A stretch of DNA of 62,483 nucleotides, filler included, from Bipalium vagum (taxonomy: Eukaryota): the NCBI GenBank assembly GCA_037834085.1. It is 3 parts of 3 records of this genome, joined end to end, with 100 filler letters (N's around TTAATTAATTAA, not from the genome) between each part and the next. Parts side by side here need not be neighbours in the genome. Positions count along the whole stretch, not along the records: positions 1 to 19,543 come from JBBMKC010000335.1; 2 more parts are not named here. One strand, given 5' to 3'. The position numbers and the translations under genes were made by a program. Under the pieces are notes generated by a model. The model saw only the letters and a program-made list of their open reading frames with translations, had not been told where the DNA came from and made no database searches. Below, one piece after another: positions 3,033 to 44,686 of this stretch; within the stretch, counting starts at the first letter, position 1; each line of letters starts with the position of its first letter.

Positions 3033-6000
3033 ATGAATAACAAAATGAACTTGTTCATTATATTTATTCTTATTATTATTATATCAGGTAAGCTTTTATT
3101 CCAATTTGTTATTCAGATAATTGTAAAAGGAGTGAATTTTTCATATTAAAAATTTTTTTCAGTCAAGCATGGTAAGGAGAAGTTGCTCACAATATTTCTT
3201 TGAACCCTTAATTGAATCCAATTTTTTGAGTGATGAGTGAATAAAATCAACTTTGATTACCTTTGATTTGAAGATATTTTTGAGTGATCTTACTACTTAT
3301 AATTTTTCAATATTTATATGACCATAATATTATTATGAATATTCGCTTATTTGTTGAAAAAAGATTGACTTATTTTACTGAAAACCATTTCCAGAACATG
3401 TTAACATGACAGGAGAAAAAAGACTCATTAGAACTTTGATGACAAATTATAAAAGTAAAGGTAAAATTGGAAGGCCAGTAAAAAATGTTCACGATATTGT
3501 CGTGGTCAAATACGGATTGGCGTTGATCCAGATCATGTCTCTTGATGAGAAAAATCAGATCCTCAGTGTCAACGTTTGGGCTAAATATGTGAGTTATGAT
3601 TTCCAACGGTTGAACAATTTTGATCAATATACCTAGACGTGGGTCGACGAAATGTTACAGTGGGATCGGAAAAAATTCTCAAACATTGAAGAGGTGAAAA
3701 TACCACCAGACAATATATGGACCCCAGATATTGTTCTTTTTAACTAGTGAGTTTTCTTTAATAAAATCTGCTTGATCCATATCCTATGAATTTAAAGATA
3801 ACATTTTACATATATTCAATCGTAGTGCTGACGAAAGGTTAGTGGAAAAGAGAGACGTGATGTTATCAGTCGATTACAGAGGAAATATTATTTGGATGCC
3901 TCCGGCCATTTTCAAGAGCAATTGTCAAATTGATATATCAAACTTTCCATTTGACTACCAAACTTGTTACTTGAAATTCGGCTCGTGGACCTATAAAAGC
4001 GATAAACTTGACATTCAGTTGTATGAGAATTCTTCGGAGATCGACATTGTGGATTATACGGAAAGCAACGAATGGCTAATCTTGCACAGACCGGCTCGCA
4101 GGTTTGTCATGTATTATAAGAAGGACAACACCAGCCAGCCAGATTTAACATTTTTCTTAATGTTAGCCCTTTTCGTTAACTTTTTAATAACAGGTTTTTC
4201 AGTTTAAAATCATTTTCATGGAAAAGTGATCATTTGTCTGTGAATGACATTGATTAATTAGTACTATATTCATATTTTGATCCTCTGAGATCTTGATCAT
4301 TGTCAGTGGTAAATTTTTAACAATTTTGACTGTTGATATTAGGTTAAATAGTGAGAATAGCATACCATAAATGCAAGCATATACATTATATATAATAATA
4401 AAAATTTAAAAATATAAAATAATATCTATATTGAATACTCAAGAAAATGATATTGCGTTATTAATATTTTGAATAATAATAATGTAATATAATATATTAA
4501 AATTAATCCCAATTTAGTTTAAAGCGAAATTCTGCATATCATGCATATCTACTGGTTGTCCCATGTGTTCTGCTATCAATTCTGACTCTTTGCATATTTT
4601 GGTTACCTCCAGAATCCCCAGCCAAAATGATTCTTGGTTAGTTGGAAATTTAATCTAACCTTTTAATTTCATTATTTCAGATACATTATATAATACATGT
4701 CATAAAAATATAATATTTTTGAAATACTTTAATAAATATTGAATTAACAACTTTATTAATAACTAATGTCGTTCTTAAAGATATTTATTTATTTATAGTA
4801 TTTTCTATGCATTTATAATTTGAGACAAATTTTATATTAAGTTCATGTTGGGTTACTAGGGAATTTGGAATGAAATAAACTTTCAAACGCTTCAAGGTCA
4901 AAGCTTAATATGCAAGTCTTACAACTATTATTTAATAAATTTAACCATGAAACCTATAAATCCAACATTGGTCTTCGTAGTTACCATCAGAATAGTATTT
5001 CCCATTTATTAAACTGATTCTTTTTGCTTTTATTTTCAACGGGAATGCAAAATACTCAATGTCCAATAGAGAAAGAAATCATAAGCATGTTTGGATAAAA
5101 TCTTCGAAGCTTAAATTAAAATTACAGTTTTGGGTACAAATTATACTCTTTTTTACATTTTTGATTATATGGCTATTTTGAAGGTTATGCCTTAGATTAT
5201 CACTGAACCATCTTATTAAATTACCGTATTTGCCGGACTATAAGCCACACCCAAAAAACTGAAATGTATTATAATTTAGGTATTACGGCTTATAGTTTAT
5301 ACGTTAATTTTGTATTCTGTGGAAAACTGTCAGAGTGCGGTTTATAATCCGGCGCGGCTTATAGTCCGGTAAATATGGTAAGTTATTAATAAAACAATAT
5401 TAATTATTGTTTGACAATACAAATCTTATTTTAACTTTCTTCCAGATTTATGGAAAATGTGATTAAATATTTATAATGGTGTGACAATCGAATTCCAGGA
5501 CCTTAGTTGTACAAAATCAAAGGTACATAAAACAACAGTAAATCATATTTCATTACTCAAAATTGTCACCATTGACTTGAGTACACTTAGTACATCTTTT
5601 ATACAAAGCTTCAAAACTTTTGTTAAAGTTCTCTTTTGGAATACCCCTCAGTTCGCTTGTAACATTTGTCTGAATATCCTCAATATCTTGAAACGTTCTT
5701 CCTTTAAGTATGGCTTTCAGTTTTGGGAATAGCATGAAATCTATTGGAGCAAAATCCGATGAATATGGAAGATGGTTGATAACCATAACTCATTTTTCAG
5801 CCAGAAAACTCTACAATTATTGAGTTATGAGAAAATGCATTATCATTCAGTAAACTCCAACTTCCTTTAGTACTGTAGGTCTAATTCTGCAAAATCAGAC
5901 ATCACTTCATTGCAATAAACAGCATGAGTTTTTTTATCAGAAGGTAGAAATTCTTTGTGAATGACTCCATCAGAATCAAAAAACGTGATCAAAGGGTTTT

Positions 6001-7376
6001 ATTCTTTGATTTTTTGCAGCCGTAACTTTTTTAGTTTTGGAGAGCCCTGTGTTGAACAAATAGGTAGTTGAAATAAAATATTCAGAATTTTCAATGAACG
6101 ATATCATGTGCTGCCATCATAAACAAAATTTATTTTACAACTGTATAATTAACGTTAAAATAATAGAACTGGAACTTTATTTTCACATCATGTACATTAG
6201 AATATGTTGACATTTTTTAACAATTAAAGTTCTTATTCACCTCAATTTTTTGAATTAATAATAATAAGAATAATAATAATAATACAATAACAACAACAAT
6301 AATAATAATACAGTAATAATAATAATAATTTTTAAACCATTAATTATTAAATAATTATCTGGAAACTTAAAAATATTAAAAATATACTTTTATGTTTGTT
6401 AAAGTAATTTGTTTTCTTCATTTTGACTTATAATTATATTATAATATAAAATGAATTAGGCATGAATATTTTTGTTGCCTTTTCTCTTTTACTTCGATTG
6501 CTAGCTGAAACCACTCCGTCTGCGTCTACGAGTGTACCATATCTTGGTAAATAAATATTATTATCTAATATTATTAATTTAATTAACATAGGCTGTTATT
6601 ATTGTTTGAACATGATTCTTATTACACTCAGCACCTTTCTTTCAATTATTGTCATTAATCTTTATTTTCGATGTGATAGAAAGAAAGATCTGCCAGATTG
6701 GTTAAGAAAAGTCAGTTCAATAAAGTAGTTTGAAAGAATTTTAATAATTTTTTAGGTTGTAAATGCCGCATCCAGTTTCCTCAGTACGAAACACGTAATT
6801 CTCTCCTCAAGTTCAGAAAAGCTACATTTAATTAAATGGGAAATCAAAAAATTAAATGTTTATGTAAATATGCAAGAAAAAGGAATTAACACATCTCAAA
6901 AAACACTTAATACTCCAACCTTTAATAGATTAAAACAAAAGAACTCAAATATGGTAGAAGAAACAGCTCTTTCAGGAAAACGTTCAACTGATTTAAGTAA
7001 TTCTATTGAAATGGGTGAACGGAAAAGTATGTTTAATCCTAGACGTTGTTCTGATAATCCCTTTACGAACCACACTACATTTTCAAGCCAAGCCAATCAA
7101 CCGAAACGAAGCAGCCATTCTGCAATTCTTTTGGAAAAAAATCTGAGCGAAATAAGAAATGCTCTAAAAAATTTAATGATGAAAATAACAGAAAAAGATC
7201 GTGGTAACAGAATCGCAAGGGAATGGAGAATTGTTGCCATAATTCTTGATCGTTTTTTCTTTTGGCTATATTTTTTTACAATCGTACTTTCTGGCTTAAC
7301 TCTCTTGGTACCCCGAGGCCTTCCTAAAAGTATGGAGCTAATTCTTGAAGAATATTCAAAAATGTACGAAAAGTAG
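3033..7376 (+). CDS. Cys-loop ligand-gated ion channel, nAChR-family non-alpha subunit, predicted anion-selective (ACh-gated chloride channel-like)
   Basis: Phase-consistent GT-AG exons 3033-3087, 3395-3588, 3637-3746, 3826-4161, 4518-4636, 6460-6546, 6592-6710, 6756-7376. Signal peptide MNNKMNLFIIFILIIIIS; WTPDIVLFNYAD; Cys-loop CQIDISNFPFDYQTC; FGSWTY; M1 YLLVVPCVLLS; PPESPAKMILGMNIFVAF (M2); M3 YYCLNMILI; M4 EWRIVAIILDRFFF. Confidence 0.95.
5224..5378. mobile_element. Tc2/pogo-like MITE in nAChR intron 5
   Basis: Inverted ends CCGTATTTGCCGGACTATAAGCC / GGCTTATAGTCCGGTAAATATGG (2 mismatches) with TA flanks; ~155 bp. Confidence 0.8.
5475..6192 (-). mobile_element. Internally deleted mariner element in nAChR intron 5
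   Basis: Minus-strand HLPYSSDFAPIDFMLFPKLK...RCTKC..NGDNFE (mariner C-terminus); further frameshifted transposase pieces upstream; degenerate TIRs (ATGGTGTGACAATCGAATTCCAG vs ATGATGTGAAAATAAAGTTCCAG). Confidence 0.85.
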
Positions 7377-9121: not shown

Positions 9122-12100
9122 ATGAAAAAAGTCGACTTAGAATACTTCAAAAAGGAATGTCTATGGGCCCATAATGAGTAAGTATCATAAGATTCAATAT
9201 TTTTTACTTTTTATTATTTAGGTTAAGAAGAGCTCATGGGGTCAAGCCGCTTAGTTATGACGACAATTTATCCATTGAGGCACAGGAATATGCCAATATA
9301 TTGAAAGAAAGAAAATCCTTTCACCGGAACAACAGTGATGAGAGGCTCGATATTGGAGAAAATGTGTCTCAGAGTTCAAAAGACTTTATAAATTATGTCT
9401 TTTCAGGTATCTTAACTTTTCAATTAGGTGATAGAGTTCATAAAACTTTAACCAGGCCTTGCAGCAACAGTTCTTTGGTACTCAGAAATAAAAGACTATA
9501 ACTTTAATAAAGAAGTCCAAGACTCAAGATTTAATACAGGTTACCTGAGGAAAATTAATAGAATATTAAATTTTAAATAGGAAATTTTACCCAAATGATT
9601 TGGAAAGACACTGAAAAGGTGGGATTTGGTAGAGCTCAAAATTCCATTACGAAAACTTGGTTCATTGTGGCAAGATATTATCCAGCTGGAAATGTGAAAA
9701 ACAAATTTAAAGAAAATGTTCTTCCGTTGATAAATAATCGTATGATTTGTCCAATATGCTAAATTATTAACGCGTTCTATTCAACAGCGAGGTGGGATAA
9801 GCTTAACGTTGTTGAAACATATTTGGAAGAATTGAAGTCGTGGGAATATACCAATGGAAGGAAAAGCATATTGGATTCATATTCCTTTTCCATACAGACA
9901 GCCAAAGATAACAAAGAGTTTCTTGTAAAGGAAAACTTCAAGCCACCTGACAAAGATGTTTATCACGAATCGCAGATCTTCAAAATTGATGTTACAAAAG
10001 AAGTAACGTGAGAAGAGAAAAATATTAATTAATTTATCAAAATTATTTATAAAAGAAATAATTTTGTGTTATATATAACAATAGACATCGAATTCGAGAT
10101 CAAGAACGTGAAGTTTGTTCACTGTTGATGAATTATATGGAATGGAAATTTTTAATATTAAATATTGTACTAATTAATATGATAATTTTATTTATTTATA
10201 TTATCTGTAAGAAATATATTTGTCATTAACTTGTCAACATCTTTAATATTGATTGAAGTCTAAATTCTAAGATGGCATTAAATCAAATTATTAGGCTTAT
10301 TATTTATAATGATCTCTTGAAGTTGTCTGGCATTGAAACATTTGGATTAATATAATATTTAAATATTTTAATGAAAATTAATTAAAGAAATAAATTTACA
10401 AATTTTAAAAAATTTTCAAAAAATTGATAGTTTTTGCCATATTAGGGATATATTTTTGGATGAAAAATCAATTTCTTAATTATCTCAAAAATTATTTTAA
10501 TAATTTTATATTTTACAGCCGCGCCCTCTTTTTGTAAATAAGGCAATACCACATAAAAGAGAAAAGGAATTCGAAGAAAAGCACGTGTCGCATCCGATTA
10601 ATTTTCGTAATGGTGAGATTTTCTTTATATTTGTAAGGCGCCTGGTAACATATTCGAATAATGAGAATTAAGTTTTGTAAAGAAAGTTAATCATACAATT
10701 TATTTAACATTACAATATGGAAACATCAGTATTTTATTTCATTCAATCCAGTTTCCCCTAGCGTCATTTAAATGGGGCAGTCTTTAAACAGGATCGCAAA
10801 CAGTAAAGATATTGATTACAAGATCTAAAGATATCAAATTTTGCAATCTGAATATTACTACAGAAAGACTCCGTGTTGTAGTGGCAGCATTTGTAATTAA
10901 AACTATGGATTTTCTAGAGATGATAATCGGTGGCTAAATGCTTAGCTAAATATAGATATCTGAACATGCAAAAAAAATATTTATTTTATATTGTTCTATA
11001 GATTAGAAAATCCATATTTTATAGATCAGAAAATATTTTTTATGTTATCATTTGATAAATTACGAAAAAAGTCGATCTTCGCAGACGTATCTATGATTTG
11101 ATTGGACAAATGAAGAAAACCGAATTGATAAAATATTTTCCAATGGAAAAGGTTCCACGTGCAACGATCTATCGAATTATCAGAAAAAAAAACAAGCATC
11201 ACTTAACCTTCATTGGAGGCAGTAATTAATACATGCATCAAAAGACAATAGAATCTTTGAACCTCTGCATTTTATTCGGAATTCTTTAGAAACCAATAAG
11301 TCTTCAAATAAATCATAAGAAAAATACACTTTTGAGTTTAACAATCTTTTTGAAAACTGAAATTGAGATTTGGTTAAATGACCCTTTTATTGTTTTTTGA
11401 CCTTTAAAGTGTAACCTGCGATTCCCATTTACATTACAACTGAAATTTGTTTAAGAAGCGTTGATTATACTCTAATCAAACTGAAAAGTTTTATTATATG
11501 ATCTCAGTTCCAACTTCACTATTGACAGAAATCATTGTCAATCACAAAGAACCTTGTCGAATTTGATGTCTTATCATATTAACCATACTCTCCTGCCTGA
11601 TTTTCCTTTTTTAAATTTAAATCATTTTTGCTCGCTATCAAAATTTTTCTCAATAAAAATGTAAAGATCTTGGTCACAATTCTTGAATTCAAGTCCCCGG
11701 AATACAAGCCTAACATCGATTTATTTATTACAATAATACTACTTATCAAAGTTTTTATTGTATTTTTATGATAGTATTAGTGCTATAAGATTTTTATTGA
11801 TTCAAGTTATATTTTGACTCAACTAAAAACATCACTTCAGCTTTTATTTATTTTCCTTTTCAAACCTCAGGGCTCAGCGACGGTGATGAAGACATCGAAA
11901 GCTTTGCAGACTGCCTGGTTGCCCGTCATAATCTGTATAGGAAAAATTATGGAGTGGAAAAACTTGTTTTTGATTATGTAAGATTAGCTATCTTTCCTTT
12001 TCCTAATGGAATAAATCTATATAATAATACTTATATGTAATATAATATTAATACACTTATATTATAAATATTATTACAAAATATTAAGCCTTGATAATAG

Positions 12101-15100
12101 AGAAGAATTATGAGCTCTCCTTTTAAAGTAGATATAAAGATTTGAAATGGAAAAAATATATAAGGACTCTTAACATTTTATTTTAAAGCAAAAAAATCCA
12201 CTTTATTATATTTTATTTTTCATAAAAATATATCTTTTACTCAATAAAAGATTTCTTTTCCTTAAATATCTTTTCTCATATGTTTCTTTTGAAATTATTA
12301 TTTCAAAAAGAAAATTTCTTTTCAGAATCTGAACTGAGATAAGAATAAATATCACTATCAAAACAAAGTTCCAAATATTCTCAACAGATGTTCTCTGGTC
12401 TAATTTCGTTATTTTCATTATGTGGAGGCTAATCAGACCTGAGGATTTTTAAAATTATTTATTATTGTAACTATTTTAAGAAAGTAACTATTAGAATTGA
12501 AACGTATTTCTTGGTTATTTTATAAATTATACTCAAGCCTCTTCACTGTAGGTTTCTATAATTCCCTCTAATCGAAGAAAGACACAATAATATTTTCTTC
12601 AAAAATTACTTCGAAGAAATGATTATTTAAAGTTGTTATAATCTGTCATAGAAAATACCTCATTCTCAATTTTCTTATTATGAATTTCATTTTTCTTATT
12701 ACAGAGATTCTTAAGACTTCATTGTACATCGACGTATTGTATGACTTAAGGAAAGAATATCACTTATGACAAGGGTTGCAATTGAACAGAAATGTCGAAG
12801 AATGCTGTCTTTTAAAACCAAGAAAATGGCATTTTTAGGGTGTTATCAAAAACTGAAAGTTAAAGTTACAATTGGTATTTCAATAATACCATTGCAAATA
12901 ATAGACCATTCTTTTACCTTTTTTATTATAGAAATTAACCGTCTATGATTTACGTCGTACACCGACTTTTGAACTTTGTAATTGTCAGTCACAAGTTCTT
13001 AATTAAACGTATATCTATTATATTTTTCGACATCTTTGACCCAGTTTAAAAATGAATGGAAAAATCTCAAATGGTTTGTTAACTTTAAGAAAAATTTTTT
13101 TTTCATCAAAAAAATTAGAACCATTCACAATGTGCATTGATTTTCACAAGAATGCTTCTCAATAAATAAATATAATCGATAATAATTGTCATTCTAAAAA
13201 ATATTAAAGTTTCATTTTTATAACTGGAAAAATAACACGAAAAAATTCCCATGTTAGTAACATAAAAAAAATGTTTTTTGAACCTGTTTTGGTAGACAAG
13301 AATAGATATTTTATACATACTCACTCACTTTTTTGTAATAGTAATTTATAAATTGAATCATAATTATATTTATTTATTTCCAAAACAAGAGGTTATTCAA
13401 AGAATAATATATTACATAAAACTGACTTGTGAAACATTTTTAGTTAAAAGCATACACACAGAAAATGCATACCAATATTATAATTTGTATACATTTCAAG
13501 ATTAATTTCTTAAAATAAAATTCTTGTGCTACCACAGGCTTTTACTTAAGATTCTTATCTGACACTATCTGACTTAAGTATACTGTTGTAAGCTGTGGCA
13601 ACCATTTAGCAATTAAACGCTTTCAGTTCAATTATAATTATAAATTAATTAAAATGAATTAATTTGATATAAGACGAATGGTTTTAGTTTAAAAGATCAC
13701 AAAAATCTAATTAAAATGTTATTATTTTCTAAAATTGATTCAGTTATAATTATCTTATCTTTAATGCAAAAGGCACTGTAGTATGTAAATAAATAAATAA
13801 ACTTTTAGCCAAAAAATATTTTAAAATTCTGCGATCTTTCAAAATTCCATAAGTTGTTAATCTCGTTAATCAATTAACACTACTTATATATTTAATCAAT
13901 ACAATAAGAATCAGTCAGAATTTGAATGAAAAATTAATGAACAATAAATTTTATATAATGGAGACCTCATTACAAAATTAAATACTTTATCACAAAAGTT
14001 TTCAGAAAATACACCCTCCATTCCAAAAATAACCGAACTTTAAAAAAAAAGCAACCAATATTTATTTTGAAAAAAATAATTTTTATTAATCAATGTAATC
14101 GCCTTCTGCATTGATACACAAATTTGCACGCACTAACAAGTTTTCAAACGACTTCTCTATGTCCTTTTTAGTAATGGTCTTTAGGACATCGGTCACCGTA
14201 CTTTTGATGGCCTCAACCGACTCGTAAAGCTTTCCTTTGATCGTCAAATGAAGATTGGGGAACAGATAGTAGTCGCACGGAGCGAGATCAGATGAATAGG
14301 GTGAATGTTGCAAAGCAATAATCTGATTTTTGTATTATAAAATTAAAAAGTGAAATATTATTTTCAAATTTCACCTTCCATTAATATCGGATCAAAATTT
14401 TTATTATGAATTTATTTTTCATTTTTTAATTCTTTATTCGATATACTTCTATATCGTATAACATTAAAGAAAATATAAATTATTATAAAAACTACCAATT
14501 TAAAAGTTCTATTAAATGAAAAAAAATATTTAACTCCTGGATCCTTTATAATAAACGAAATATATAAATTAATTGAAAACGAATGTGTAATATGACTTTA
14601 GAACCTTTAAGATAATGAATTTTACATAAAATTAAACAAAGTAAATTTTCTGTAAATTGTATATAATAATAAAGAAAAGGTTGTGAAGTCATATTTTCAT
14701 AAGAAAATTAGCTAGTTATCGTATAGAAAACGAATCTACAGAAGGTTTATAAAAGGGTATTGAACTTATTCACAAATATTTTAAGATTCAAAACAAGTTA
14801 ATATTTCAAATACAAATATGTAATATTGAATAATATTTTAAATATTGAATAATGTTTAAGGTGAATATTACAACAGATAAAGAAAAAAATCTAATATTTG
14901 ATTTTATATTAATACAGTTAAAAAGGATTAGAATTATTGAAAGACCTAAATTTCCTTACAATTTGGCAGTAATTGTAAGAAATCAAATTTTAAATAATTT
15001 ATTATAATAGGGAATTTGTAGATTTTAATAATGAACACTTTAGTTTCAGCATTTATTTAAGCAGCATTAAATAATATTTTATTTTTACAATAAGAATGAC

Positions 15101-18100
15101 TTTTTATTACATTTATGATAATAATATGAAATTTAATCGTCCTAAAACTTACCACATAGATTTAAAATGTTAGTTATTGGTCCTTCTGGAGCAGGAAAAT
15201 CTTGCTTATTTTATAAAATATTAGGGTCCTAAAATGGACTATGATAATTTAAATAACTTTTCTAAGTCGTTCAACTGGAATTTAAATTTATAAGACCATT
15301 TTGATTCAAGATAAATATAGAAAGGTTTCAATAAAGAATCATTCAACAAAAACAATGTAATGAAAAAGATTATGAATTTAAAAAAAAACAATAGCTAGAT
15401 TAAGTAATAAAAATAAAGAAATTTCTTCACCAGATAAATTAATAAAATTTTTTTTTGATGAAATAATAAATGAAAAAATCAATATGTAATATGAAAATGT
15501 ATTTAATAGAGAAGTACATAATAAATGTCAGTTAAACTTATTTACCAAGTTTTAAGAAATTAATAAAACAATGAAGTGATTATTTATATTTTCGAAATAT
15601 TTCAAAATTGGAAGATTATTAGAAATATTATATAAAAGAAAATTTTCATAATAAATCAATTTTTTAAAATAATAATTATTTTATTTAATATATGAGAACT
15701 TTAAAATCGTATTACTCAATATATTATACAACATAACAAGCTACTTGTTTATATTTTACACGATGGCGTAAATGGTTGATGAATGTAAAAAATAATAATG
15801 GATTTTTAAGAATACACTATTTTTAATAAAAAAAAAATAATGTTAATAATAATAAATTAAATCTTATATTTTTTAAATTTTAAGATTTAAGCTTAAAATT
15901 TCAATAACAATTCAGAATCTAAGTAATTTTGCACAGAAATGGGCGGAAACACTTGCAAATGGTCATTTTCTGGGATTTAGCAATTATACATATAAGGATT
16001 CTCAGATTGGAGAAAATATTGCCATGAAAAACGATGAATTGACGTACCTTTCGTGTAAGTTAGATTGTTATAAAGAAAAAAATAAAATTGAGCAATTTAC
16101 AAAAGTTAGGATTTGCTATTTCCAAAATCTACATTTCTTGATTATATTTTAAAGAAATAAAATTTTTTAAATGCTGCCGACTTATTATTTCCAATGGCAT
16201 AATAAAAATTTTCTTAAAAATTAATTAACCGGTGGCCAATAAAGAATGATAAATTGTTTAAATACATTATTTTTAAACTAAAAAAAATCTAAATTTGAAT
16301 TATTAATTGATTTAATTTATGTCAAGATTTTTAATATCTTGCAAAATAAACATACGTTATTTTTAGCCATATTTTCTTTTAGATATTGATGTATGAGAGC
16401 TGTGTAAGAAATTTGATAAAAACCCATTATAAAAATGGGAAAACACCGGAAGAAATTTATGAAGCTGTAGCAAAAACGGTACAAAAGTCCACTATTTATA
16501 GATGGCCTAAACTAATAAAAGAGGAAAAATTACTTGCTCGAAATTCCCCTGGACGTCCAAGAACCGTAAGAACGAAAAAATTTATCAAAAAAATTAACAG
16601 AAACCTTACAACAAACAAAAAAAATCAGCTAGAAAGTTAGCTTTAGATTTTAAATCTTCAAGAGGAACTATTGAAAATATTATACATAATGACTTGGGAT
16701 TTAAGTGCTAAAGGAAAATAAAACTTCCTTCTCTATCTTCTCAATAGACGAAACACGTGCTCATATTGGTTAAGAAAAATATTTAGTAAACAGGCAGTGA
16801 ACAAAATTGTTTAGTGATGAAAAATCTTTTGATGCAGATAGTCAGCTTAATTCACACAACGACGTCGTTTATACTGTGTCTAGAAAAGATTTAAATTTAA
16901 AAGGTGGACTTTTCCAAACAGAAAATATTCTTTGAAAGTGATGGTATGGGTTGGACTGACATATCAGGGTCCGACGAAATTTGTATTCTTACCAACAAAA
17001 ACATCTTTTGATACAAGATTTTATATATCAAATGTACTTCCAATCGTTGCAAAATATGGAAGGGAGCTCATTGGAAGCGATTTCATATATCAGCAGGATG
17101 GTGCTAGCTGTCACAAAAACAAAGAAACGATTGCGGCATTCAAAAAGACTGGTATTTCAGTAATAGCTCCAAATCATTGGCCACCAAATTCACCAGATCT
17201 TAGTCCTCTTGATTATTTCTTTTGGGATGAAGTATCAAAGAGACTGAAAACAAAAAAATTGAAAATCGTACAAAACTGATTGAAAAAATTAAAGAAACAA
17301 TTGCAGAAGTTCCATTATATATCAATTCGCCAAGCCATTGATTCCTTTCGACAAACAGTTTTGGCCATAGACAGGCCTAAAGGAAGTTTAATAATAAACT
17401 GTTTTAATTAAATAAATTTTGGTTTTATTCTTTATTAAATACTTTTAATTGAATTAATTTAACATTATGCTGTCTATGTCAAACGTCGTTCAAAGAATTA
17501 TCATTCTTTATTGGCCACCGTTATTAATAACGAAATTGGTGTTGAACATCGAATAATTTGATTCGATATTAAACTAAAGAATTTTTTGATATACTGATTT
17601 AATATTATTTTTGATTTTGACGTAACATAACATGTTTTCATTTAAAATTTATGTCACAATCACAATAAATTGTAGGTTGGATTGTAATGATTTTAAAAAA
17701 TTAAAAAAATTAAATTATTATATTATAAATTAATGATTCAACTATAGATCTGTATGCTTACCTATATTTTTAAAATTATATCTGAAGTGTCACATGTGTT
17801 TGTATGCGACCATTTTTTTTTGGTATACACTCTTTAATATATTCTATAACTATATTTTCATAAAGGTAATCAGCTTGTGGATAACTGGTACAATGAAAAC
17901 AGATTTTATTTCTATGAAAATGAACATGGGGATATAAGGGAATTTGGTTGGTTTTTTCTCCTTCATTTTTGGTACTTTTTTCATTTATATATTATGACAA
18001 GATTCTTTTGTTTAACGTCAGAAAAGCGTGTTAAATTCATTATTTATAAAATATAATTGAATAAAAGTCACCAATCCATATATTAAAATAAAATCTGACG

Positions 18101-19304
18101 GAACAACTTCACCGTAATAATATTTTTTCAGCTTTTTCGATGTTTCTTTAGCCGTTTTCCCTTTTAGAAAGTAGTGCTTAATAACTACACGAAATTCATG
18201 TTTCTCCATTTTTCATAAATTAAAAAAATTCTTAACTTCAAATGATTGAAACAAATAAACTAACACGTGTATCAATATATAAATTTGATCTTATTTATTT
18301 AGATGTTTGTACTTTTTAATAATATGGTTGATTTTATTTTTGTAACCAGGCTAGTTGGTTAGATAGCTTACTTATCAATCTACTCTCGTATTTACTGAAA
18401 TAAAATATTATTTTAAAATATTATTATTCACAAAATATTATATTATTCAAAATAGTTAATTTGACTGTTTTCTTATTTCATTTTTAAAAATTTATCCACC
18501 GCTTTTAATCTTTAAAGAAATTTTATAATCAAAGCTTCTCCAAACCGAAAATGTAATAAATCTTAAGTGCAATGTGTTTAAAGTTAATCTTAAAGATGTC
18601 AAACTATGAACAAAAACCATTTGTTTCTACCATTGTTATTATTTGAAAACTTAAAATAAACTATTGATAAAGCTATAAGTTATTTCTGTAAGTAAATTGC
18701 TGAACGAGCTCCATCCAAAGTCTTCACCTCAAAGGATTTAAACATTAAAATTGTGATACAAAATATGAAGAGGACACAGGGGGTTCAAAATATGTAGAAT
18801 TAATTTAGATTGACCAGAGGTACTACGCAAACACAACAAAGTATCAAAATCTGCATCATATTTGAAGGTTACTTGTCGAAGGACATTGAATGAGAAACTC
18901 TAAAGATTGAACCTCTGAAATCTTAATTGAAAGACAAGAAAGAATGTGTTTGATGTATTTCTTGGTTGCCGGTGACAACAAGTAGATTTACTTAAACATT
19001 GAAAGAAGCCATTTCTTGAAAAATCAACCTTTTGGGATTTAATACCTTATATAAATTAATTGAATTTTTAATTGTAATATTAAATATATCTTCTTTATCT
19101 ATAAGTTTGTATTAAATAACAGAATTTTGTTAATAAAAGAAAATTTCAGGACATTTTACTCAAATTGTTTGGAGAAGTACAAGAAAAATTGGTATTGGGA
19201 TATCAAAAACCCCGTCCGGACTTAGCTTTATTGTTTGCTTTTATTATCCTGCTGGAAACGTCAAAGATGAATTTTGTGAAATGGTTCCTCGTCTTATAAT
19301 ATAA
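9122..19304 (+). CDS. Tandem double CAP/SCP-domain protein (GAPR-1/GLIPR2-like, group-2 venom allergen-like), no signal peptide
   Basis: Exons 9122-9177, 9222-9406, 9456-9539, 9581-9739, 9788-10007, (10085-10112), 10519-10612, 11871-11977, 15916-16054, 17866-17946, 19150-19304, all phase-compatible. Domain 1: AHNELRRAHGVKPL, IGENVS, WYSEIKDY, GNFTQMIWK, VARYYPAGN. Domain 2: RHNLYRKNYGV, AQKWAETLA, IGENIA, WYNE, GHFTQIVWR, VCFYYPAGN. Confidence 0.9.
11060..11190 (+). mobile_element. Tc1/mariner-superfamily transposase HTH remnant
   Basis: DLRRRIYDLIGQMKKTELIKYF..KVPRATIYRIIRK resembles Tc1/maT N-termini; truncated. Confidence 0.4.
14012..14330 (-). mobile_element. Mariner 3' end fragment
   Basis: QHSPYSSDLAPCDYYLFPNL...CINAEGDYID plus a TIR-like end after TA at 14010-14011. 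Confidence 0.85.
14436..15075 (+). pseudogene. Decayed Polinton/adintovirus-like minor capsid (penton) gene
   Basis: Frameshifted pieces YTSISYNIKENINYY, LTPGSFIINEIYKLI, RIIERPKFPYNLAV and EFVDFNNEHFSFSIYL* follow the recalled penton pattern (NI..NN; PGSY.I..I; I.E.P..P; DF.GE...LHL). Confidence 0.6.
15115..15700 (+). pseudogene. Decayed Polinton-type A32/FtsK-like packaging ATPase
   Basis: LPHRFKMLVIGPSGAGKSCLFYKIL (Walker A), MDYDNLNNFSKS, IFFDEIINEK (Walker B), ENVFNREVHNK (RGRH-like), with frameshifts. Confidence 0.7.
16230..17520 (+). mobile_element. DD37D (maT) Tc1/mariner-superfamily transposon, near full length, inactivated
   Basis: TIRs CGGTGGCCAATAAAGAATGATAA; HTH ORF 16386-16640; SDEKSF; VMVWVG; QQDGASCH...WPPNSPDLSPLD with 37 residues between the last two catalytic Asp; frameshifts and stops. 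Lies in a CAP-gene intron. Confidence 0.92.
18018..18388 (-). mobile_element. Mariner 5' end fragment (Himar/irritans-like N-terminus)
   Basis: MEKHEFRVVIKHYFLKGKTAKE; TIR-like TACGAGAGTAGATTGATAAGTAAG at the right end. Confidence 0.8.
18800..18990 (+). mobile_element. Degenerate CR1/L2-like LINE C-terminal remnant
   Basis: QRYYA...NEKL*RLNL/KSLIERQER resembles the VQRR.TK...Y.ERL..LNL.SL..RR motif; heavily decayed. Confidence 0.3.
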
Positions 19305-19952: not shown

Positions 19953-21019
19953 TTAATTACTAAAATTTAAAAACAGAAATTTAATTTCTAAATTTAAATA
20001 TAGAAATAATTTAAAGCAAAAAACTAGAAAAGGAAAACATTAAATCTAAAATTAAAAATGATCTAAAATATAGCATATATAAGGTCAAGTATATTTGGAA
20101 AGAAGCACAACAAAAACATCAACAAAATTTGAGAAGAGATAATCGAATTCAAAAACGTAGACGCTCAACGTCAATTTTGTCTACAGAAATTGGATACTAT
20201 CAACAAGTGGTTCAACTATTTAAGATCGCGAGCTATTGAAAACAAAAACTTTCAACATTCGATTTAAATTCAAATCATCAAACTAGATACAAGGAAGTCA
20301 TTGCAACTCCAAGATAGCAAATCAACACGAAATATTCTGTAAAGCGAGACCGGAAGCAAACTTTTTCTACGAACCAACGTATATGCTCCATTGATACCAG
20401 TAAATTTATTTAATCATTTATTATTACTATTATTATTATTATTATTAATTAACTATTTTATCTGGTAAATTATTATAATTTACAAAGATTATTTAAAATT
20501 CAAATCAAGTAAAATACTCTTCCGATAATCACTATTTCATAGGATTATCTATATTTTTTGGTTTACATTTTCCATTTTTCTTTTTTTGTTTAGGGTTTGC
20601 ACAACAGTCAGGGTTGGCAAATCTTCTTAGGACCTTACCACAAGTTACAGGATAACTGTGTAAGGATTTAAAGATTCTCATTTAAAATCACTGTAAATTC
20701 ATATTTTTACAAATAAAAATATTTGTGTTGGAGTCTTGGTTGTTTTCATTTGTTTTATACTTGTTCCGAATTACAGGCCATAAATTCTTCTGATATTTAA
20801 ATGGTTCATGTTAAGTAACCCTTACGTTTTTTGCCGATTTGTTAAAATTTGAATTAAGTCACTTACTTCACTTAAACTTAACAAAATATATATTACTTTG
20901 AAGTAATATACAATACACTTGACCTAGATATTATACTTTAATAAAATTATTTAACATGAATGTAAATAATTATGTGGTGTTAAAAAAAATTATGACGATC
21001 AGTGTAGTACTTTTGGTCG

Positions 21020-21680
21020 TTGCAAGACAAGACGATAATACAGTCGTCGATGTTCCGAAATAACTGGATCCTAAAGTTTGGTGCTCCAAAAGAGATACAT
21101 GCTGATAGCGGGAAATGTTTTGAGTCCCAAGAATTTAAAAATCTGGCAGTAGACATAGGAGCAGACTTGATCTTCTCTAGCCCGTACCACCATAATACAA
21201 ATGGAGTCGTTGAACGACAATTTCGTACCTTTACAGAGTTATAAAAGCAACTTTAAAAGATAGAAAGAAAACCGATTGGGCAGAAAGTTTGACCAGAAAT
21301 CGAGTATTCTTTAAACGCATCTGTACAGAAGACAACACGCATGATTCCGGCGGAGTTAGTTTGGGCCGGAGAATAAATAAAGAAAGATGGTTCAGTAGGA
21401 ATCAAAAAGCTAGAGATGAGGCCATTCAGAAAATCAGACAAGAATCACGGTTGTTGGGAAATCAAGAAACCACAAGGAACTTTACAGTCGGAGATGAAGT
21501 CATGATTCAAAAAGAAATTAGAACCAAAGATCGAGATCGATACGAGGGGCCATACGAAATTAAAAAGAAAATCCGTTTCGAAAAATCTGTTACGAAATGA
21601 CAGATACGAATGGGAAGAAAGTGGTGAGAAACATTGAAAAGATCAAGAAATTCTTTCAAAAAAGAATGGATTTGAGGATT
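21020..21680 (+). mobile_element. Ty3/Gypsy integrase fragment
   Basis: WILKFGAPKEIHADSGKCFES...SSPYHHNTNGVVERQFRT (D,D35E core) and FTVGDEVM...RYEGPYEI (GPY/F motif); frameshifted. Confidence 0.9.
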
Positions 21681-22029
21681 AAAAAGTTTTAAATAATTTT
21701 AATTTGTTTAAATTAATTAATTAATTTGTTTGAATAATTGTTATATTACAATATATAATTTCTAATTGACTCTTGATAACTTATCAACTGATATAAATGT
21801 AACTAACAACCATTAAGATGAATAGGAAATAATACAAATGTTTTAATTTTATTTGAAATTTCTAAAAATGATAAGTCACAAGTTTATTCGAAAATGTTAT
21901 CTTATTTTATTGAAAAATAAGAATTTGATTATTTATTTAATTTTAATATAAATCAAAAATATAATCATATTTTTATCAATTTAGAAAGTAAATAGATAAT
22001 GTCATCAGCATTTCAATAAAAAAATTTTA

Positions 22030-22330
22030 TTTTTTTTTAAATGAAAAAATTAAACTTTGATAAAAACTATTATTATCGAAATACAACATGTGAAAAAATT
22101 GATTATTATGAAGTATGTCTAGATCCAGAAACAATTACAATGGAAATTTAATATAATATTATAATAATGGAAATTTAACATTTACAATAACACTAAAAAC
22201 CAATCCTTTTGATTTATTTGAAGCATATTTTATTTATGAAATTGAGATAGCAGGTATTAAACCATAAGATAATATTACTTTACAAAATAACTTTTTTCCT
22301 TATTTTCAAATGCAACTTTAAAATTAGAAT
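22030..22330 (+). pseudogene. Decayed Polinton/adintovirus-like major capsid protein N-terminus
   Basis: KIDYYEVCLDPET..NNGNLTFTITLKTNPFDLFEAYFIYEIEI...DNITLQNNFFPYF resembles the recalled MCP start (E..EY.P...LN..G.I.I...SYL...L.NN...LF). Confidence 0.5.
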
Positions 22331-25403: not shown

Positions 25404-30286
<4,883 letters not shown>

Positions 30287-30558
30287 TAAATATATTCTTT
30301 AAGAAATAAATATTTCTTGTTTTGTTTTTCGTTGGCAATTTTATTTTTCTTAATTCCTGAGAAATTAATTGTTTTAATACAGTTTAAACAATTGATTTGT
30401 CTCTCGACAGAATCTACTCAAAGCAAATATATTTGTTTAATATGTTGTTTTCTAATACAGTTAACCATGACAACGAAATAGAAATTTTTTTCATGTTGTG
30501 TAAATAAATAAAGACGGTTTTGCCTTATATTTCTATTTAAAAATTGCTTTTCTCACAA

Positions 30559-31767
30559 ATGAATGTCATTGATTATCCAAAATGGTCAGATATTTTTTAC
30601 GGTACACTCAGTGGAGTTTTTCTCTTTGGCAGCATCTTTATCCATGTTTTAACTCTCATAGTAATTACTCGTAGCCGAAGATTGCAATCAACAACGAATT
30701 ATTTCTTAATCAATTTGTCAGTATTGGGAATCTTGAGCTCTCTTCCAATGGTATTTGTTATCGTTAATAGTATTTGGAAATTCTTGGAAATCCCTTCAGT
30801 TTTGTGTAAAATTGTTCCGACATTTTCCGAAATGATTATGTGTGACAACCAAGTAGTCTTAGTATCAATTTCTATTGATCGATATTATACCTTAACTCAA
30901 CCCTTGAATTTCAAAATTACGAAATTTCAAACTAAGAAGATGATTGTGTTGGGGATTTTATTTTCCGTTGTCATAAGTTTTCCTTTTGTGTATTTATTTG
31001 ACACAAAAATTACGTTCTATGATTCGATTTGTATCTGCATGGTAAATGTAACGAAAATCGAAACCCATAAGCCCATTTGGATTTATTTATCCGTTGACAT
31101 TTTGCTAAATTTTGTGATTCCTTTCATAATTATAATTGCAGCTTATATTAGGATTTGTACATATACTTGGACTTTTGGAAGACAAGGAATCGGCGCTCGA
31201 TTTCTGCAAAGAACATCGAATAATATCCAGAGATCGAAGGTGAAAGTATTAAAAATCTTGGTTTTGATCTCTGTTGTAGATTTATTTTCAATGATGATAA
31301 TAACTATTCTCAAACTGTTACACTTTCTTTCCTTGGACAAAAAATGGAATGCTATTAACATTTTTATTAACATTTTATTTTACTCTTTGCTAATTAATCC
31401 TGTGCTTTATATTACTCTTAACACAACTTTTCGGAGGGGGTTTAAAGAAATACTCTGTTGGTCAAAAAGACATTACTATAGAACTCAAGCCTATTCCGTC
31501 ACCACCATCACAGCTATTGCAAAGCGCAATTATATCAGTAATTATGATATTGAGGAAATTGGAAATTTTAAGCAAAGACCGAAAAATAACCTATTCGAAG
31601 TTCCAAATGAAAGTGAAAACAAAAATAAATTTAAAAATGATTTTGAATATTCATATGAAAATAATTACTTCGATAATATTATTTGTTCTGACAATGATTT
31701 AAAGCTTCTCAAAACTCCAATCTCCAATTCGTCTTCAATGGACAGATCAAATTTTATTAAATATTAA
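30559..31767 (+). CDS. GPR19: Intronless rhodopsin-class GPCR, GPR19-like
   Basis: Seven hydrophobic segments; RSRRLQSTTNYF, SIDRYYTLTQPLNFK, RSKVKVLK, NPVLY, FRRGFKEILC..YRTQAYSVTT...KRNYI match GPR19 signature stretches. First ATG at 30559. Confidence 0.88.
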   Translation: MNVIDYPKWSDIFYGTLSGVFLFGSIFIHVLTLIVITRSRRLQSTTNYFLINLSVLGILSSLPMVFVIVNSIWKFLEIPSVLCKIVPTFSEMIMCDNQVVLVSISIDRYYTLTQPLNFKITKFQTKKMIVLGILFSVVISFPFVYLFDTKITFYDSICICMVNVTKIETHKPIWIYLSVDILLNFVIPFIIIIAAYIRICTYTWTFGRQGIGARFLQRTSNNIQRSKVKVLKILVLISVVDLFSMMIITILKLLHFLSLDKKWNAINIFINILFYSLLINPVLYITLNTTFRRGFKEILCWSKRHYYRTQAYSVTTITAIAKRNYISNYDIEEIGNFKQRPKNNLFEVPNESENKNKFKNDFEYSYENNYFDNIICSDNDLKLLKTPISNSSSMDRSNFIKY

Positions 31768-36266: not shown

Positions 36267-39200
36267 ATGAAAGAAATTATTTGGTACTTAATGGATTTAA
36301 TTTTATTAAATAATTTAACTTCTTTCATTTTTAAGGTCTTTGCTAGTGATTTTCGTCATCAATACAAATTCCGTTAGTTATTTTTCAAGAATTTAATTTA
36401 TTAAGTAAATTTTAGCAATGGACTGGTCGGAAAAATTGTAATGAAATATGCGATGTGAATGTGTGCAAATGTGTTGGAATAGTTGGACCAAAAGTAATAA
36501 TTTTTATAATTAGTATAATTAATAAAATAATTTGTCTACAGGGTGACTACGGAAGAATAGGAAATCCTGGATTAAAAGGACCGAAAGGTTATGCTGGTAG
36601 CATGGGAGAAATTGGCATGCGTGGCCCAATAGGAGATTCTGGCTCTAATGGTCAGAATGGAAATCCAGGAGATAGAGTAAAGAATATGTTTTAAAAGGAT
36701 ATTAAATTGAATATAATTATAGGGAGAACCCGGTGATTACGGTATTCCTGGTATTCATGGAGACCCCGTAAGAAAATTATATTTATTATTAAAGAATTAT
36801 TATATTTAAAATCATTAGGGAGATGTTGGGTTATATGGAGATAGAGGTGATGTCGGTCTGCCAGGATGTAATGGGACAGATGGAGATAGGGGGAACAACG
36901 GTTTGCCTGGTATTGGGGGAATTTCTGGAGATAAAGGTATAAAAGGTGATAATGGTGATACCGGTGAACCTGGTCTACCATTTCAAGCGAGAAAAGGAGA
37001 AAAAGTATTCTGTTGATTTGTAAATAATTTTATTAAAAATTAATAAGGGAAAATCCGGAGATAAAGGAATGTCTGGTGAAAAAGGAGAAAAGGGATTTGA
37101 TGGAAAGAGAGGTATTGAAGGAGAAAAGGGTGATAAAGGATTTCAGGTACGATTTATTATTTTTATATTTTTATTAAAAATAAGTGTAAAGTTATTATAA
37201 ATATTAAAATAATCTTAATAGGGTGATGATGGAGATCAAGGACCAGTTGGTTATCCAGGTGAACCAGGAGATCGACCAGCTGGTTTTGCACAAAAGGGTG
37301 AAAAAGGTTTACCTGGTCATAAAGGAGATGCAGGAATGGATTGTAAATTGGTAATTTTAAAAGGAATTATACCACCTGATCAAAAGGGTGAAAGTGGTGA
37401 TAAAGGAGAATCAGGAGTTAAAGGGAAGCCTGGTCTAATTGGTAATCAGGGTGATAAAGTAAACATTTATTATAAATGTTTGTAATCTTTTAAATATAAA
37501 TATATAGGGTGTAACTGGCGATGTTGGAACGCCTGGTCTTAAAGGAAGTAACGGAGATCAAGGAAATAGAGTACATTCTATATTATTGTTCTACATAATA
37601 GTTCTATATAATTATTTTAAAGGGAGATCAAGGACTAAAAGGGCATCCGGGTAATAAAGGAGCAAAAGTAAATTTAAAAAGAAATTTAAAAAAAGGTTAA
37701 TAAATGGTTATAGGGCATTCGAGGTATAGATGGAACTATTGGTTCTAAAGGTGTAAAAGGACCAAAAGGCTTACCTGGTAAACAAGGGATCGATGGAAGT
37801 AGAGGTTACAAAGGAGAAATTGGTGAACCTGGGGTAGTTGTTTTTACTATTGTCAACTTTTAATTATTAATGATCTACACAAAGGGAAATGGAAAATGTG
37901 TTGGTAATATACAAGGTCCTCAAGGGCCTACTGGAGAAAAGGGTGAAAAGGGAGACCAATGTTCTGCAGGCTTACAAGGTGATCAAGGAGATTTTGGTGA
38001 TAAAGGATCGCAAGGACCTGATGGTCCTGTGGGGGATATTGGAGATTCTTGTGCACCTGGTGAGAAAGGAGATACTGGTGAGAAAGGAGAAAATGGTAAT
38101 CTTATTATAATTAAGTTATAATTAAAATTGTATTAATTAAGGTGAAACTGGTGTTATTGGAGCCAGAGGGGATTTTGGGTTTAAAGGAGAGAGTGGAGAT
38201 GAAGGAGAAATGGGAGAGGAAGGAAAATCTATTAAGGGTATTAAAGGCGATGAAGGAGATGAAGGTGTTATAGGCGATAAAGGTTTAATTTATGAAGTTT
38301 AATTCATGAGATTCATACATAAATATAAAAAGGTTCGAAGGGGTCTAAAGGTGTTAAAGGAGAAAGAGGATTATCCGGAAGACCAACAACAGGTGTAGTT
38401 GGTCCTAAAGGAAAAAAAGGAGAAAAAGGTCTCAATGGCCTTGATGGTAAACGAGGTAAAAGAGGACCTAAGGGCATGAAAGGCATAATGGGGTCAGCCT
38501 GTAAATTATGTCAGAAGGGTGAAATTGGTATTAAGGGAATGAAAGGTATTCAAGGGAAAAAAGGCAATGATGGACCTAATGGAAGAGATGGAAATCCCGG
38601 TTCTCGAGGAGACAGAGGCAGACCTGGAAGTGATGGTGCAATTGGGGCTGACGGCTCTTATGTAATTTTTTTTTAAATAAATAAAAAATTTAAAATAAAT
38701 TTTTTACAATATCCCACAGGGAGATGTTGGAGAAAGAGGCCTTTTGGGCGATAAAGGAATAAAAGGTGAAAAAGGTGATTCTCATGAAGAGAAGATTGCT
38801 TCTATCAAAGGAGATAAAGGTGAGAAGGGATATGATGGACAGGTAGGTCCAAAGGGAATTAAAGGATCTCCTGGCCCCAATGGACAACAAGGTATACGTG
38901 GTGATGATGGAGAACAGGTTTGTACTTTATAGTATAAGTAATAAAATAACACTATGTTATAGGGTGTAACTGGGGATATTGGGGATGTCGGAATGAAAGG
39001 TTATAAAGGAGAAACTGGCAATAAAGGAGTTAATGGAAATGATGCCGGACCTGTTCAAGGAGAAAAGGGTGATTCTGGTGAAAAAGGAACTAGAGCATTT
39101 GACGGAGAAAAGGGTGAAAAGGGAGAACCTGGAAGTTGTACAATTGCATATGTTGGACATATTAATGCAACTGGTCTTATTTTTTAATTTACTCGAAGTA

Positions 39201-42200: not shown

Positions 42201-42770
42201 CAGTGTGCAAGAGATGGAAGCTGTAAGCAAAAGATCAGAGCGGATAAATCTTACTGGCTTGCTTCATTGGCTCCCATAACTGGTAATATGATTGAAGTAC
42301 AAAATATCGAAAAATATTTATCAAAATGTGTGACGTGTGAAAGTGCAGCAGAACCCTTTGCATTCCACTCTCAAACAAATAAATTGAGTGATGTAATATG
42401 CCCAAGTGGATGGACTGAATTGTGGAATGGATATAGCTTTGTTATGGTTAGCAGAGTTTTTTAAAATTAAAAATCATTAATTTTGTTTTAGCATAGTGCA
42501 GCAGGTAATGGAGGGGGTCAGAGTCTGTCTTCTCCTGGAAGCTGTTTGTCATATTTTAGGTTTTCTCCTTTAGTGGAATGTAACAATGGTATGGATAGAT
42601 GCAATCATTGGCATGATGCAAGAGCTTATTTCTTGAGACATGTTGACAAAGAATTCGAAAATCCTAAAGGGAAATACATTAAAGCAGATGAGGATTACCA
42701 GAATGTTTATGATGAACTGAGTCGATGCAGAGTTTGCATAAAAAAGACTTCACAGTCGTTTTATAAATGA
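36267..42770 (+). CDS. Collagen type IV alpha chain (alpha2-like NC1), ~26 exons, roughly 1750 aa
   Basis: Signal peptide [18 protein letters not shown] (36267-36283 + 36336-36372); Cys-rich 7S ([13 protein letters not shown]); long interrupted Gly-X-Y over short-intron exons; NC1 in 41419-42447 and 42492-42770 ([47 protein letters not shown]). Confidence 0.96.
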
Positions 42771-43239
42771 ATAAATTTTGAATAATTATTTTCGATTTTC
42801 TGAATCTAACCGCATAATTTTAAACATTTAAATAATGATATTTTTATTAAATTATAGATGAATAATTAATGACTTTTTCCAAGGTGAGGTGAAGATATCA
42901 CTAGATAGATATTTTCTCATTATATAAATCTAAATATTTATTATCATTTACATCTTTTTAACTGGTATTGGTTGAAATAATTTAATTTGTGGAGTTTTAA
43001 ATTAAGATTCCACATTTTGGTCTAAAATGTTGATTATTGTTAAGTATAGAGGAAAGATGAAAACTATGCAAAGCATCTAGAACATGATGTTCATATTATA
43101 AAAAGATCGTTTAATTTTATCTATTATGTTTTAGAAATAAAATACTATGGGAAAATTAGAATATTTTAATTGTTAACAATCAGCATTTAGTTTGAGAAAA
43201 AACATTTATTTTTTAAAAATAAGTCGATAAATTTTAATC

Positions 43240-43485
43240 ATCATTCTAGTTTACTAAAAATATTTAGAATTTTAATTATTGATCCTTCTAGTTCTGGTAA
43301 AACAAAATTATCATGTGTTGCAAGAAAATTACGTTGATTATAATCTCTTTATTATTTTTTCTAAGATTGCTTTGCTTCAATCTAAATTTAAATATATAAA
43401 AGATTGTTTTGATTTTGGTCTAAAAAATTATGTCTTCAGAAAATTATTAGATCTATATTTTATATCTAAAATCTTTATATTATAA
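43240..43485 (+). pseudogene. Second decayed Polinton-type packaging ATPase fragment
   Basis: HSSLLKIFRILIIDPSSSGKTKL (decayed Walker A), then after a frameshift ENYVDYNLFIIFSK..LQSKFKYIKDCFDFGL. Confidence 0.6.
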
Positions 43486-43870: not shown

Positions 43871-44686
43871 TTAAGAAAAAAACTTTAAAAAATTCCTAAT
43901 TATTTGCTCCATTTTAGGCCAAAAATATTTCCGTGATATTCTTGATAAAATTTTTCTAGCTGATAAATGTCCTTCTAACGCTCCATCGTGGTACTGTATC
44001 ATTATTGGTTCTCGATCCTTACTAGGTACTACGTAACATGGGTCTTGATTTTTACTAAAATATAATATGCCTTTCTTTATTTTAAATTTGTCCTTTAACT
44101 TATCCCAATTCTTTTCCCAATCCTCTGGAATATTTCCTTCCATGCACTTCTTTATTAGTTCTATTTCCTCGTCTGCCTTCTGATCGTTTTCTCTTGAGTC
44201 CACCATATTCACAAGTCTGATTGTTGCTAACACCGTCTCATCTTCTTCGCCCAATTGAGCATCTTCTCTGGATAATTCCCCTTGTCTCATCCGGGATAGA
44301 GTATCGGCGTCTGCATTGGCCTTTCCTTTTCGATACCGAATTTTTATATCGCACTCTTGTAATATTAAGGCTCATCGGATGAGTCTACTCGCCGTATCCC
44401 TGTTTTTCAATAGCCATTGTAAAGAACTGTGGTCTGTAAATAAGATAGTTTTCCGTCCCCACAAATAGTGTCTGAACTTCTTCACTGCAAACATTATCGC
44501 CAAGGCTTCTTTCTCGATCGTCGCGTAATTAAGCTCGTGTTTCTTCGATCCTCTAATGGCGTAGGCTATGACATGATCTTTTTCACCTTCTGCCTGTTGC
44601 GCTAGCACGGCTCCAACTGCATAACCACTAGCGTCCGTCATTAGCAGAAAAGGTTTCGTCATGTCTGGATACCGCAATACTGGTTC
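43871..44686 (-). mobile_element. Ty3/Gypsy pol fragment (RNase H and integrase zinc-finger start)
   Basis: PFLLMTDASGYAVGAVLAQ, NYATIEKEALAI, FTDHSSL, RKGKANADAD, YHDGALEGHLS...KYFWPKM; in-frame stop; cut by the gap. Confidence 0.93.

Follow-up and report, generated by a model that had tools for sequence, protein, structure and literature searches.

A decayed Polinton-type packaging ATPase in a CAP-gene intron of Bipalium vagum

The DNA analysed here (the window) is a stretch of 62,483 nt from Bipalium vagum (GenBank assembly GCA_037834085.1), AT-rich animal DNA across which Pfam matches reveal host genes. One of these, a multi-CAP gene (GAPR-1/GLIPR2-like), is interrupted by a long intron that holds the broken remains of an A32-type (FtsK-HerA) packaging ATPase, the kind encoded by Polintons/Mavericks, preceded by a decayed stretch that may be a penton gene. 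An earlier note, made from the sequence alone, had described the locus as a fossil virion module, penton plus packaging ATPase, decayed within a 3.9-kb intron of the CAP gene. The intron is borne out: it is a phase-0 GT-AG intron with the donor GTAAG after 11977 and the acceptor TTCAG before 15916. The features of the locus are the following.

11978-15915, + strand: phase-0 GT-AG intron of 3,938 nt, which splits the second CAP domain of the multi-CAP gene and contains the fossil
14009-14407, - strand: one-ended fragment, presumably mariner-like, with a transposase C-terminus at 14086-14334; it abuts the 5' edge of the fossil
14430-15074, + strand: decayed coding-like stretch, candidate penton (minor capsid), from motif spacing and a marginal whole-length profile fit
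15096-15620, + strand: decayed A32-type packaging ATPase of a Polinton, from profile, frameshift-aware alignment and tree
15179-15202, + strand: Walker A of the ATPase fossil
15448-15462, + strand: Walker B region of the ATPase fossil
15502-15522, + strand: remnant of the arginine-finger region of the ATPase fossil

All nine motifs quoted in the earlier note were recovered on the + strand and in the order in which it gave them.

14457-14486, + strand, frame 3: YNIKENINYY
14530-14562, + strand, frame 1: LTPGSFIINEI
14933-14956, + strand, frame 2: IIERPKFP
15018-15059, + strand, frame 3: VDFNNEHFSFSIYL
15158-15202, + strand, frame 2: RFKMLVIGPSGAGKS
15237-15251, + strand, frame 3: DYDNL
15258-15269, + strand, frame 3: FSKS
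15451-15468, + strand, frame 1: FFDEII
15502-15522, + strand, frame 1: FNREVHN

Two details differ from that description: the stop placed after SIYL is present but lies four codons further on (15072-15074), and the Walker B piece, also present, reads KFFFDEII and not IFFDEII. DYDNL..FSKS, between Walker A and Walker B, is counted among the parts of the ATPase fossil. The ATPase motifs are far above chance; the upstream motifs, those of the penton candidate, are above chance only marginally.

The ATPase was studied with a profile of 107 proteins, taken from 451 candidates and seeded from the ATPase of contig L144, most of which carry PF04665. In an hmmsearch of the window this profile matches 15137-15241 (independent E-value, iE, 5.4e-8) and 15286-15555 (iE 0.0015). 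The best match in the window falls on the intron locus for 48 of the 98 ATPase proteins that have any match, and for other proteins, top-ranked among those listed, on two sister fossils described below. The frameshift-aware search that had been proposed as a check yields an ATPase match far above shuffles: with X at the breaks, the alignment scores 48.1 at the strict setting (shuffle maximum 18.7, 0/300) and 55.6 at the permissive one (shuffle maximum 19.5, 0/300), and the Walker B part alone scores 24.1 (shuffle maximum 18.6, 0/1000). Against column-shuffled profiles the stretch reaches 128.5 for a mean of 50.0 (0/500), and its C-terminal columns also give 0/500. Since both the Walker B part and the whole stretch beat their shuffled controls, the signal exceeds that of a generic P-loop; the colinear similarity that continues outside the P-loop marks the protein as a member of the A32-type family. 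The ATPase half of the earlier proposal, that a packaging ATPase of A32 type comes from a Polinton-type element and has decayed in the CAP-gene intron, is thus supported by profile, shuffles and tree.

The ATPase gene is dead. Its frame changes at least three times (near 15145, 15224 and 15381), six stops interrupt the motif-bearing frames, and the profile alignment breaks off near 15616, before the C-terminal quarter, which was not found; for these reasons it can no longer be a working gene, and the fossil makes no packaging ATPase protein now. Walker A, Walker B and arginine finger no longer share an unbroken frame, and the downstream motifs are degenerate. The most probable start is the ATG at 15096, with an alternative at 15126. 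A contig from sequencing run X1, which is possibly the source of the window itself, spans 14303-16200 at a depth of about 20 with zero differences, so that this assembly is not alone in showing the breaks.

Relatives of the ATPase were found by DNA patterns and by alignment. A degenerate DNA pattern of the Walker A stretch recovered 24 metagenome loci, the best of which are the ATPases of contigs L144, L127 and L136, two of them sitting in an integrase-bearing gene row. Against viral contigs, the strictest pattern gave no match and a loose one at least 120 loci, many of them virophage-like; further patterns found one viral locus and two unrelated phage loci, and nothing was matched in prokaryote genomes. 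An alignment of 20 of the 107 ATPases led to eight viral loci among 189 stretches, near-complete Polinton-type elements included. Contig L148, for example, carries an integrase, an ATPase, a penton, a pX-like protein, a double jelly-roll (DJR) major capsid protein (PF21738), a polymerase and a protease, of which the polymerase, protease and penton were named by motif, profile and fold and not by Pfam.

The phylogeny was reconstructed by maximum likelihood from 55 rows (52 of 157 ATPases after removal of near-duplicates, plus three ATPase pieces of the window) and rooted at the midpoint. All three window pieces group with P0057 and P0058 (96/92), and this group lies inside a 43-row clade (99/99) with the ATPases of contigs L136, L146, L147, L148 and L156. 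Seven virophage-like rows are separated from the window pieces by a 94/84 branch. Judged by this tree, the intron ATPase appears to group with Polinton rather than virophage ATPases. P0057 and P0058, two ENA proteins with PF04665 (Pox_A32), are the nearest sequences to all three fossils; unlike these they are intact, and they lie on contigs of 982 and 3,977 nt. The intron copy is 44% identical to the nearer of the two over 128 columns.

The related contigs show some variation around their core genes. A PLA2-like domain and an integrase share one frame in L144 (2434-3840, - strand) and L136 (242-1609, + strand); in L146, L148 and L156 they are separate open reading frames (ORFs), or the integrase is absent from the stretch examined. 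Extra unannotated genes stand beside the core module in L146 (988-1752, + strand) and L148 (1586-2218, - strand). The Alpha and Beta classes of adintoviruses are told apart by the class of PolB and by PLA2X as against GasderminX accessory genes (PMC8502044), genes that are absent from the intron locus; the PLA2-like domain of the related L144 (PF08398) and L136 is an indirect pointer to the adintovirus Alpha virion module.

The stretch upstream of the ATPase (14430-15074) has at least three frame changes and eight stops, and it ends at the TAA at 15072-15074, 21 nt before the likely ATPase start. We lean towards reading it as the penton. The profile used for comparison holds 118 of 120 listed proteins, from 2,278 relatives among 4,832 candidates, and its family is that of true pentons: the protein model of L148 (predicted local distance difference test, pLDDT, 61) matches first the mavirus penton (E 1.5e-8) and next the penton bases of adenoviruses. 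Four motifs, chosen by eye, lie 204, 179, 48 and 15 codons from the stop, as against 197, 172, 51 and 14 in the penton profile. At one shared setting the penton is the best of six Polinton gene profiles (47-54/500 shuffles reach its score, against 27-178/200 for the other five), and among 82 control tiles a single one came up to z 2.4, the value of the stretch at that setting. Against shuffled profiles, the score is reached by 9-66/500 over the full length, 5-16/500 in the C-terminal third and 13-120/500 in the N-terminal part; p is about 0.01-0.13 in the permissive tests over the whole length. When the whole length is aligned and set against DNA shuffles, 1-8/300 reach the score at the two higher settings and 42-95/300 at the lowest. 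This last test mostly detects coding-like DNA, since at least 12 of 164 control tiles outscored the stretch when settings were matched (z of at least 2.9, where the stretch scored 2.2). Neither hmmsearch nor tblastn with the Polinton pentons found a match in the stretch, the alignment of pentons against PDB sequences gave none below E 0.5, and a 52-residue piece upstream of the ATPase had no relatives among 35 viral stretches. The sole tblastn penton matches, near 36830 in the collagen region, were rejected as chance.

Two further ATPase fossils lie elsewhere in the window.

21810-22016, + strand: second ATPase fossil, C-terminal part (hmmsearch iE 5.4e-12; 0/300 shuffles), a separate insertion
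22077-22318, + strand: weak candidate for an N-terminal fragment of the major capsid protein, directly behind the second fossil (5-11/500 profile shuffles reach its score)
43197-43452, + strand: third ATPase fossil, N-terminal part with a degenerate Walker A (profile match, 0/300 shuffles, tree)

The second fossil is 62% identical to P0057 over 65 columns and the third 50% identical to the nearer of P0057 and P0058 over 68 columns. No colinear DNA similarity was detected among the three. They are separate copies, since host exons stand between the first two, and some of the same part of the protein is covered by both the first and the third. The candidate capsid stretch at 22077-22318 has no Pfam DJR match in three frames. 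Beside the third fossil, a 16-codon polymerase-B motif at 43542-43495 (- strand) was reached by 0/200 shuffles, having been noticed first and tested afterwards. As for the surroundings, the second fossil and the stretch behind it (21810-22318) come just after an LTR-retrotransposon-like (long terminal repeat) integrase piece at 21019-21600; near the third there is a short, non-significant protease-like HWCW motif at 43594, and an RNase H/integrase retrotransposon piece follows at 43874-44734 (- strand).

Three ATPase fossils of the same clade in 62 kb suggest that the intron copy is one of many in an expanded family. Depth in run X1 is a hint in the same direction: in the bin 15152-15198, over the Walker A stretch, the summed contig depth is 10,677 compared with about 20 for unique DNA, a sum that is not a copy number, that may include other organisms and to which other genes may be drawn by the short P-loop. 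Fifteen contigs end loose at 15199.

Several scenarios may explain the intron locus. We hold it very probable that 15096-15620 is a broken A32 ATPase of Polinton type, likely the remnant of a dead Polinton/Maverick, with the upstream stretch possibly its penton. A number of results weigh against this. Profiles for polymerase, integrase and major capsid found nothing at the intron locus, a weak negative, as these profiles are shallow (4-8 sequences, five for the major capsid); nor did a similarly shallow protease profile. No convincing terminal inverted repeat, arrangement of end motifs or target-site duplication surrounds the fossil. In the intron AGTAGT has a single occurrence, within the mariner-like piece, and so has ACTACT, at 13879; the two stand in the wrong order for element ends. 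Since the genes and terminal repeats were not found, as for the polymerase is only to be expected in a fragment, the locus is better called derived from a Polinton than a Polinton element, and since polymerase, integrase, capsid, repeats and duplication were all not found, integration by the element's own integrase is something that we only infer. In single-frame searches, Pfam returned generic P-loop matches only, with Pox_A32 at E 0.2, as did PHROGs; a HMMER search of the frame-2 reading against 1.84 billion representatives gave no match, and a homologue search with the Walker B frame retained 0 of 35 candidates. On the tree, the ATPase row sits on a long end branch (1.38) with only half of its columns filled, and its relatives are unnamed metagenome proteins with no host on record. 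For the penton, the local frameshift-aware score (11.4) does not exceed the null mean of about 12 (198/300 and 235-378/500 shuffles reach it), a broad profile, built from 7 Polinton pentons and 14 virophage-like ones, gives no signal (235-468/500), and the better p-values belong to a grid whose settings and column ranges were picked with the hypothesis in mind. A penton stands directly upstream of the ATPase in none of the six distinct Polinton-type contigs that bear both genes, and in the closer L136 and L144 the gene at that place is pX-like.

The window-wide scan with Polinton gene profiles was scored with a local background, as the AT-rich background inflates GC-rich regions. The sole integrase match in the window (21083-21373) is one that we read as a piece of an LTR-retrotransposon. 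A set of 144 ORFs from 17 Polinton-type loci, each searched singly, gave no convincing match to the flanks of the fossil.

Of the virion module of the earlier note, the ATPase stands; the penton, with no local match, a marginal whole-length fit and no signal with the broad profile, is a plausible candidate and not an established part. One possibility, which we take seriously while giving it a limited share of belief, is that the ATPase is a Polinton fossil and the upstream stretch is a different Polinton gene, specific to its lineage, or else AT-rich debris with a chance likeness to a penton. The failure of all 118 Polinton pentons to match locally, the control tiles that outscored the stretch and the gene order of the six reference contigs speak for it. 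Yet the motifs keep the order of a penton and a spacing within 7 codons of it over about 200, few profile shuffles reach the score of the C-terminal third, a single control tile out of 82 equalled the stretch, and Polinton pentons are highly divergent from one another (PMC4028283 Fig. S2).

Alternatively, the fragment could have been carried into the intron by other means, in a non-autonomous element, together with the mariner-like piece or during break repair. In favor of this scenario, only about 1.2 kb is present, no element ends are associated with it, it abuts a one-ended mariner-like fragment, and the other two fossils are also short and beside other transposon debris. Nevertheless, it seems unlikely, as a single carrier would tend to leave colinear DNA similarity or common ends, which the three fossils do not detectably share, and no contig among those listed from run X1 joins the mariner-like piece to the fossil elsewhere. 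An origin from a virophage or a protist Polinton-like virus, or contamination, is suggested by the nearest relatives being metagenome proteins of no named host; it is very improbable given the separate grouping of the virophage-like ATPases (94/84), a contig of single-copy depth on which the stretch runs on into the host exon at 15916, and the presence of three copies among host genes. The earlier note had itself named a cellular NTPase pseudogene as the finding that would overturn its proposal. A P-loop of ABC, AAA or GTPase type, with all the rest due to chance, is what the 28-residue Walker A piece would indicate when taken alone, as its best matches are AAA_29 (E 0.0023) and ABC_tran (E 0.0048). 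This reading is largely refuted and we give it hardly any credence: the match runs on colinearly past the P-loop, the Walker B part beats 1000/1000 shuffles and the C-terminal columns 500/500 profile shuffles, and the tree places the protein among Polinton ATPases.

If the preferred Polinton origin is accepted, a history can be proposed that goes beyond the directly observed homology, tree placement, breaks and intron, and draws on what is known of the family. A whole element, with protein-primed polymerase, integrase, capsid module and terminal inverted repeats, would have been inserted into the intron by its integrase, and the insertion would have been tolerated because it was spliced out with the intron. 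Most of its length would later have been lost through deletions and later insertions, such as that of the mariner-like piece beside it, and stops and frame changes would have built up in the remnant. As long as the element was alive, its ATPase would have served to pump DNA into a jelly-roll capsid, with the penton forming the vertices.

The host gene of the fossil extends over 9178-19300 (+ strand), with at least two CAP domains (GAPR-1-like) and introns full of transposon debris. Its first CAP domain (9178-9498) is above the Pfam cut-off (PF00188, E 8.9e-5) and also matches GAPR-1. The second is spread over exons at about 11891-11977, 15916-16047 and about 19150-19300; joined across the fossil-bearing intron and aligned to the first, it scores 60 against a shuffle maximum of 54 (0/1000). 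The fragment at 14009-14407 is taken to be mariner-like from a sequence motif; a Pfam search gave no transposase match for it, and its second end was not found in the window at up to 7 mismatches. In run X1 it is a high-copy repeat, with high contig depth and loose contig ends at both 14009 and 14407. A Tc1-like transposon (16230-17520, + strand) lies in the following CAP-gene intron; its DDE transposase is broken, and its inverted ends, 39 nt long, are 82% complementary. Since no Rfam family matched at gathering score, there is no group I intron in the window at that score. Other host genes of the window are listed here.

3776-7373: nicotinic-receptor-type channel
25552-27218: kinase
30541-31764: rhodopsin-type G-protein-coupled receptor (GPCR)
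41355-42461: collagen IV

The collagen IV gene as a whole is long (36400-42770, + strand), with a strong G-over-C skew (up to 0.6) and a C4 domain at its end. A 191-codon open frame with no Pfam match (29711-30286, + strand) lies just upstream of the GPCR, which is a single-exon gene (30541-31767).

The earlier note had also raised a possibly uncharacterised polintovirus family. This finds no support, because planarian Polintons with penton and ATPase have already been published: four are reported from Schmidtea mediterranea (Polinton1_SM, -1_SM, 2_SM and -2_SM), all with penton and ATPase and three with the major capsid (PMC4028283 Table S1). The intron ATPase, for its part, is 44% identical to a metagenome protein and has its place within the Polinton clade. 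Neither the locus nor its ATPase clade was met under a name in the literature searched, the published supplements of which may hold a matching family. A more speculative proposal, to us a doubtful one, is that of a high-copy Polinton lineage in a flatworm-like genome, a lineage seen elsewhere only as unnamed metagenome proteins. Its virion genes would run in an order of their own, penton - ATPase - major capsid, and its penton would have diverged beyond the reach of current profiles. It might include a young, near-identical subfamily at hundreds of copies, a figure suggested by the summed contig depth, which over the Walker A stretch is about 500 times that of single-copy DNA. As it stands the locus has little significance, decayed Polintons being common in animal genomes and documented in planarians. 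The useful lead is the density of three same-clade ATPase fossils in 62 kb, which marks the genome as Polinton-rich, and P0057 and P0058 are good baits for the copy number, age and gene order of the family.

Compared with known Polintons/Mavericks (Polintoviricetes, adintoviruses), the fossil has its ATPase in the same clade as contigs L136, L144, L146-L148 and L156 and shares their intronless, compact layout. It differs in that only about 1.2 kb is left, and of polymerase, integrase, protease, major capsid, terminal repeats and target-site duplication none was found there. Should the gene in front of the ATPase be a penton, this order too would depart from all six reference contigs and from the vertebrate layout (PMC8097293). 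Such decay has precedents: 96% of vertebrate Maverick loci are eroded (PMC8097293), and Starrett et al. 2021, who defined the adintoviruses and whose main text does not mention flatworms, described a relic on human chromosome 7 in a similarly decayed state (PMC8502044). Among planarians, Polintons are subject to silencing by PIWI-interacting RNAs (PMC8532177), and a clear DNA/Maverick expansion is described in Dugesia (bioRxiv 10.64898/2025.12.11.693146). The high copy number of the Schmidtea and Dugesia Polintons fits three fossils in 62 kb. The intron locus is likely an ordinary Polinton/Maverick fossil, a well-known kind of element.

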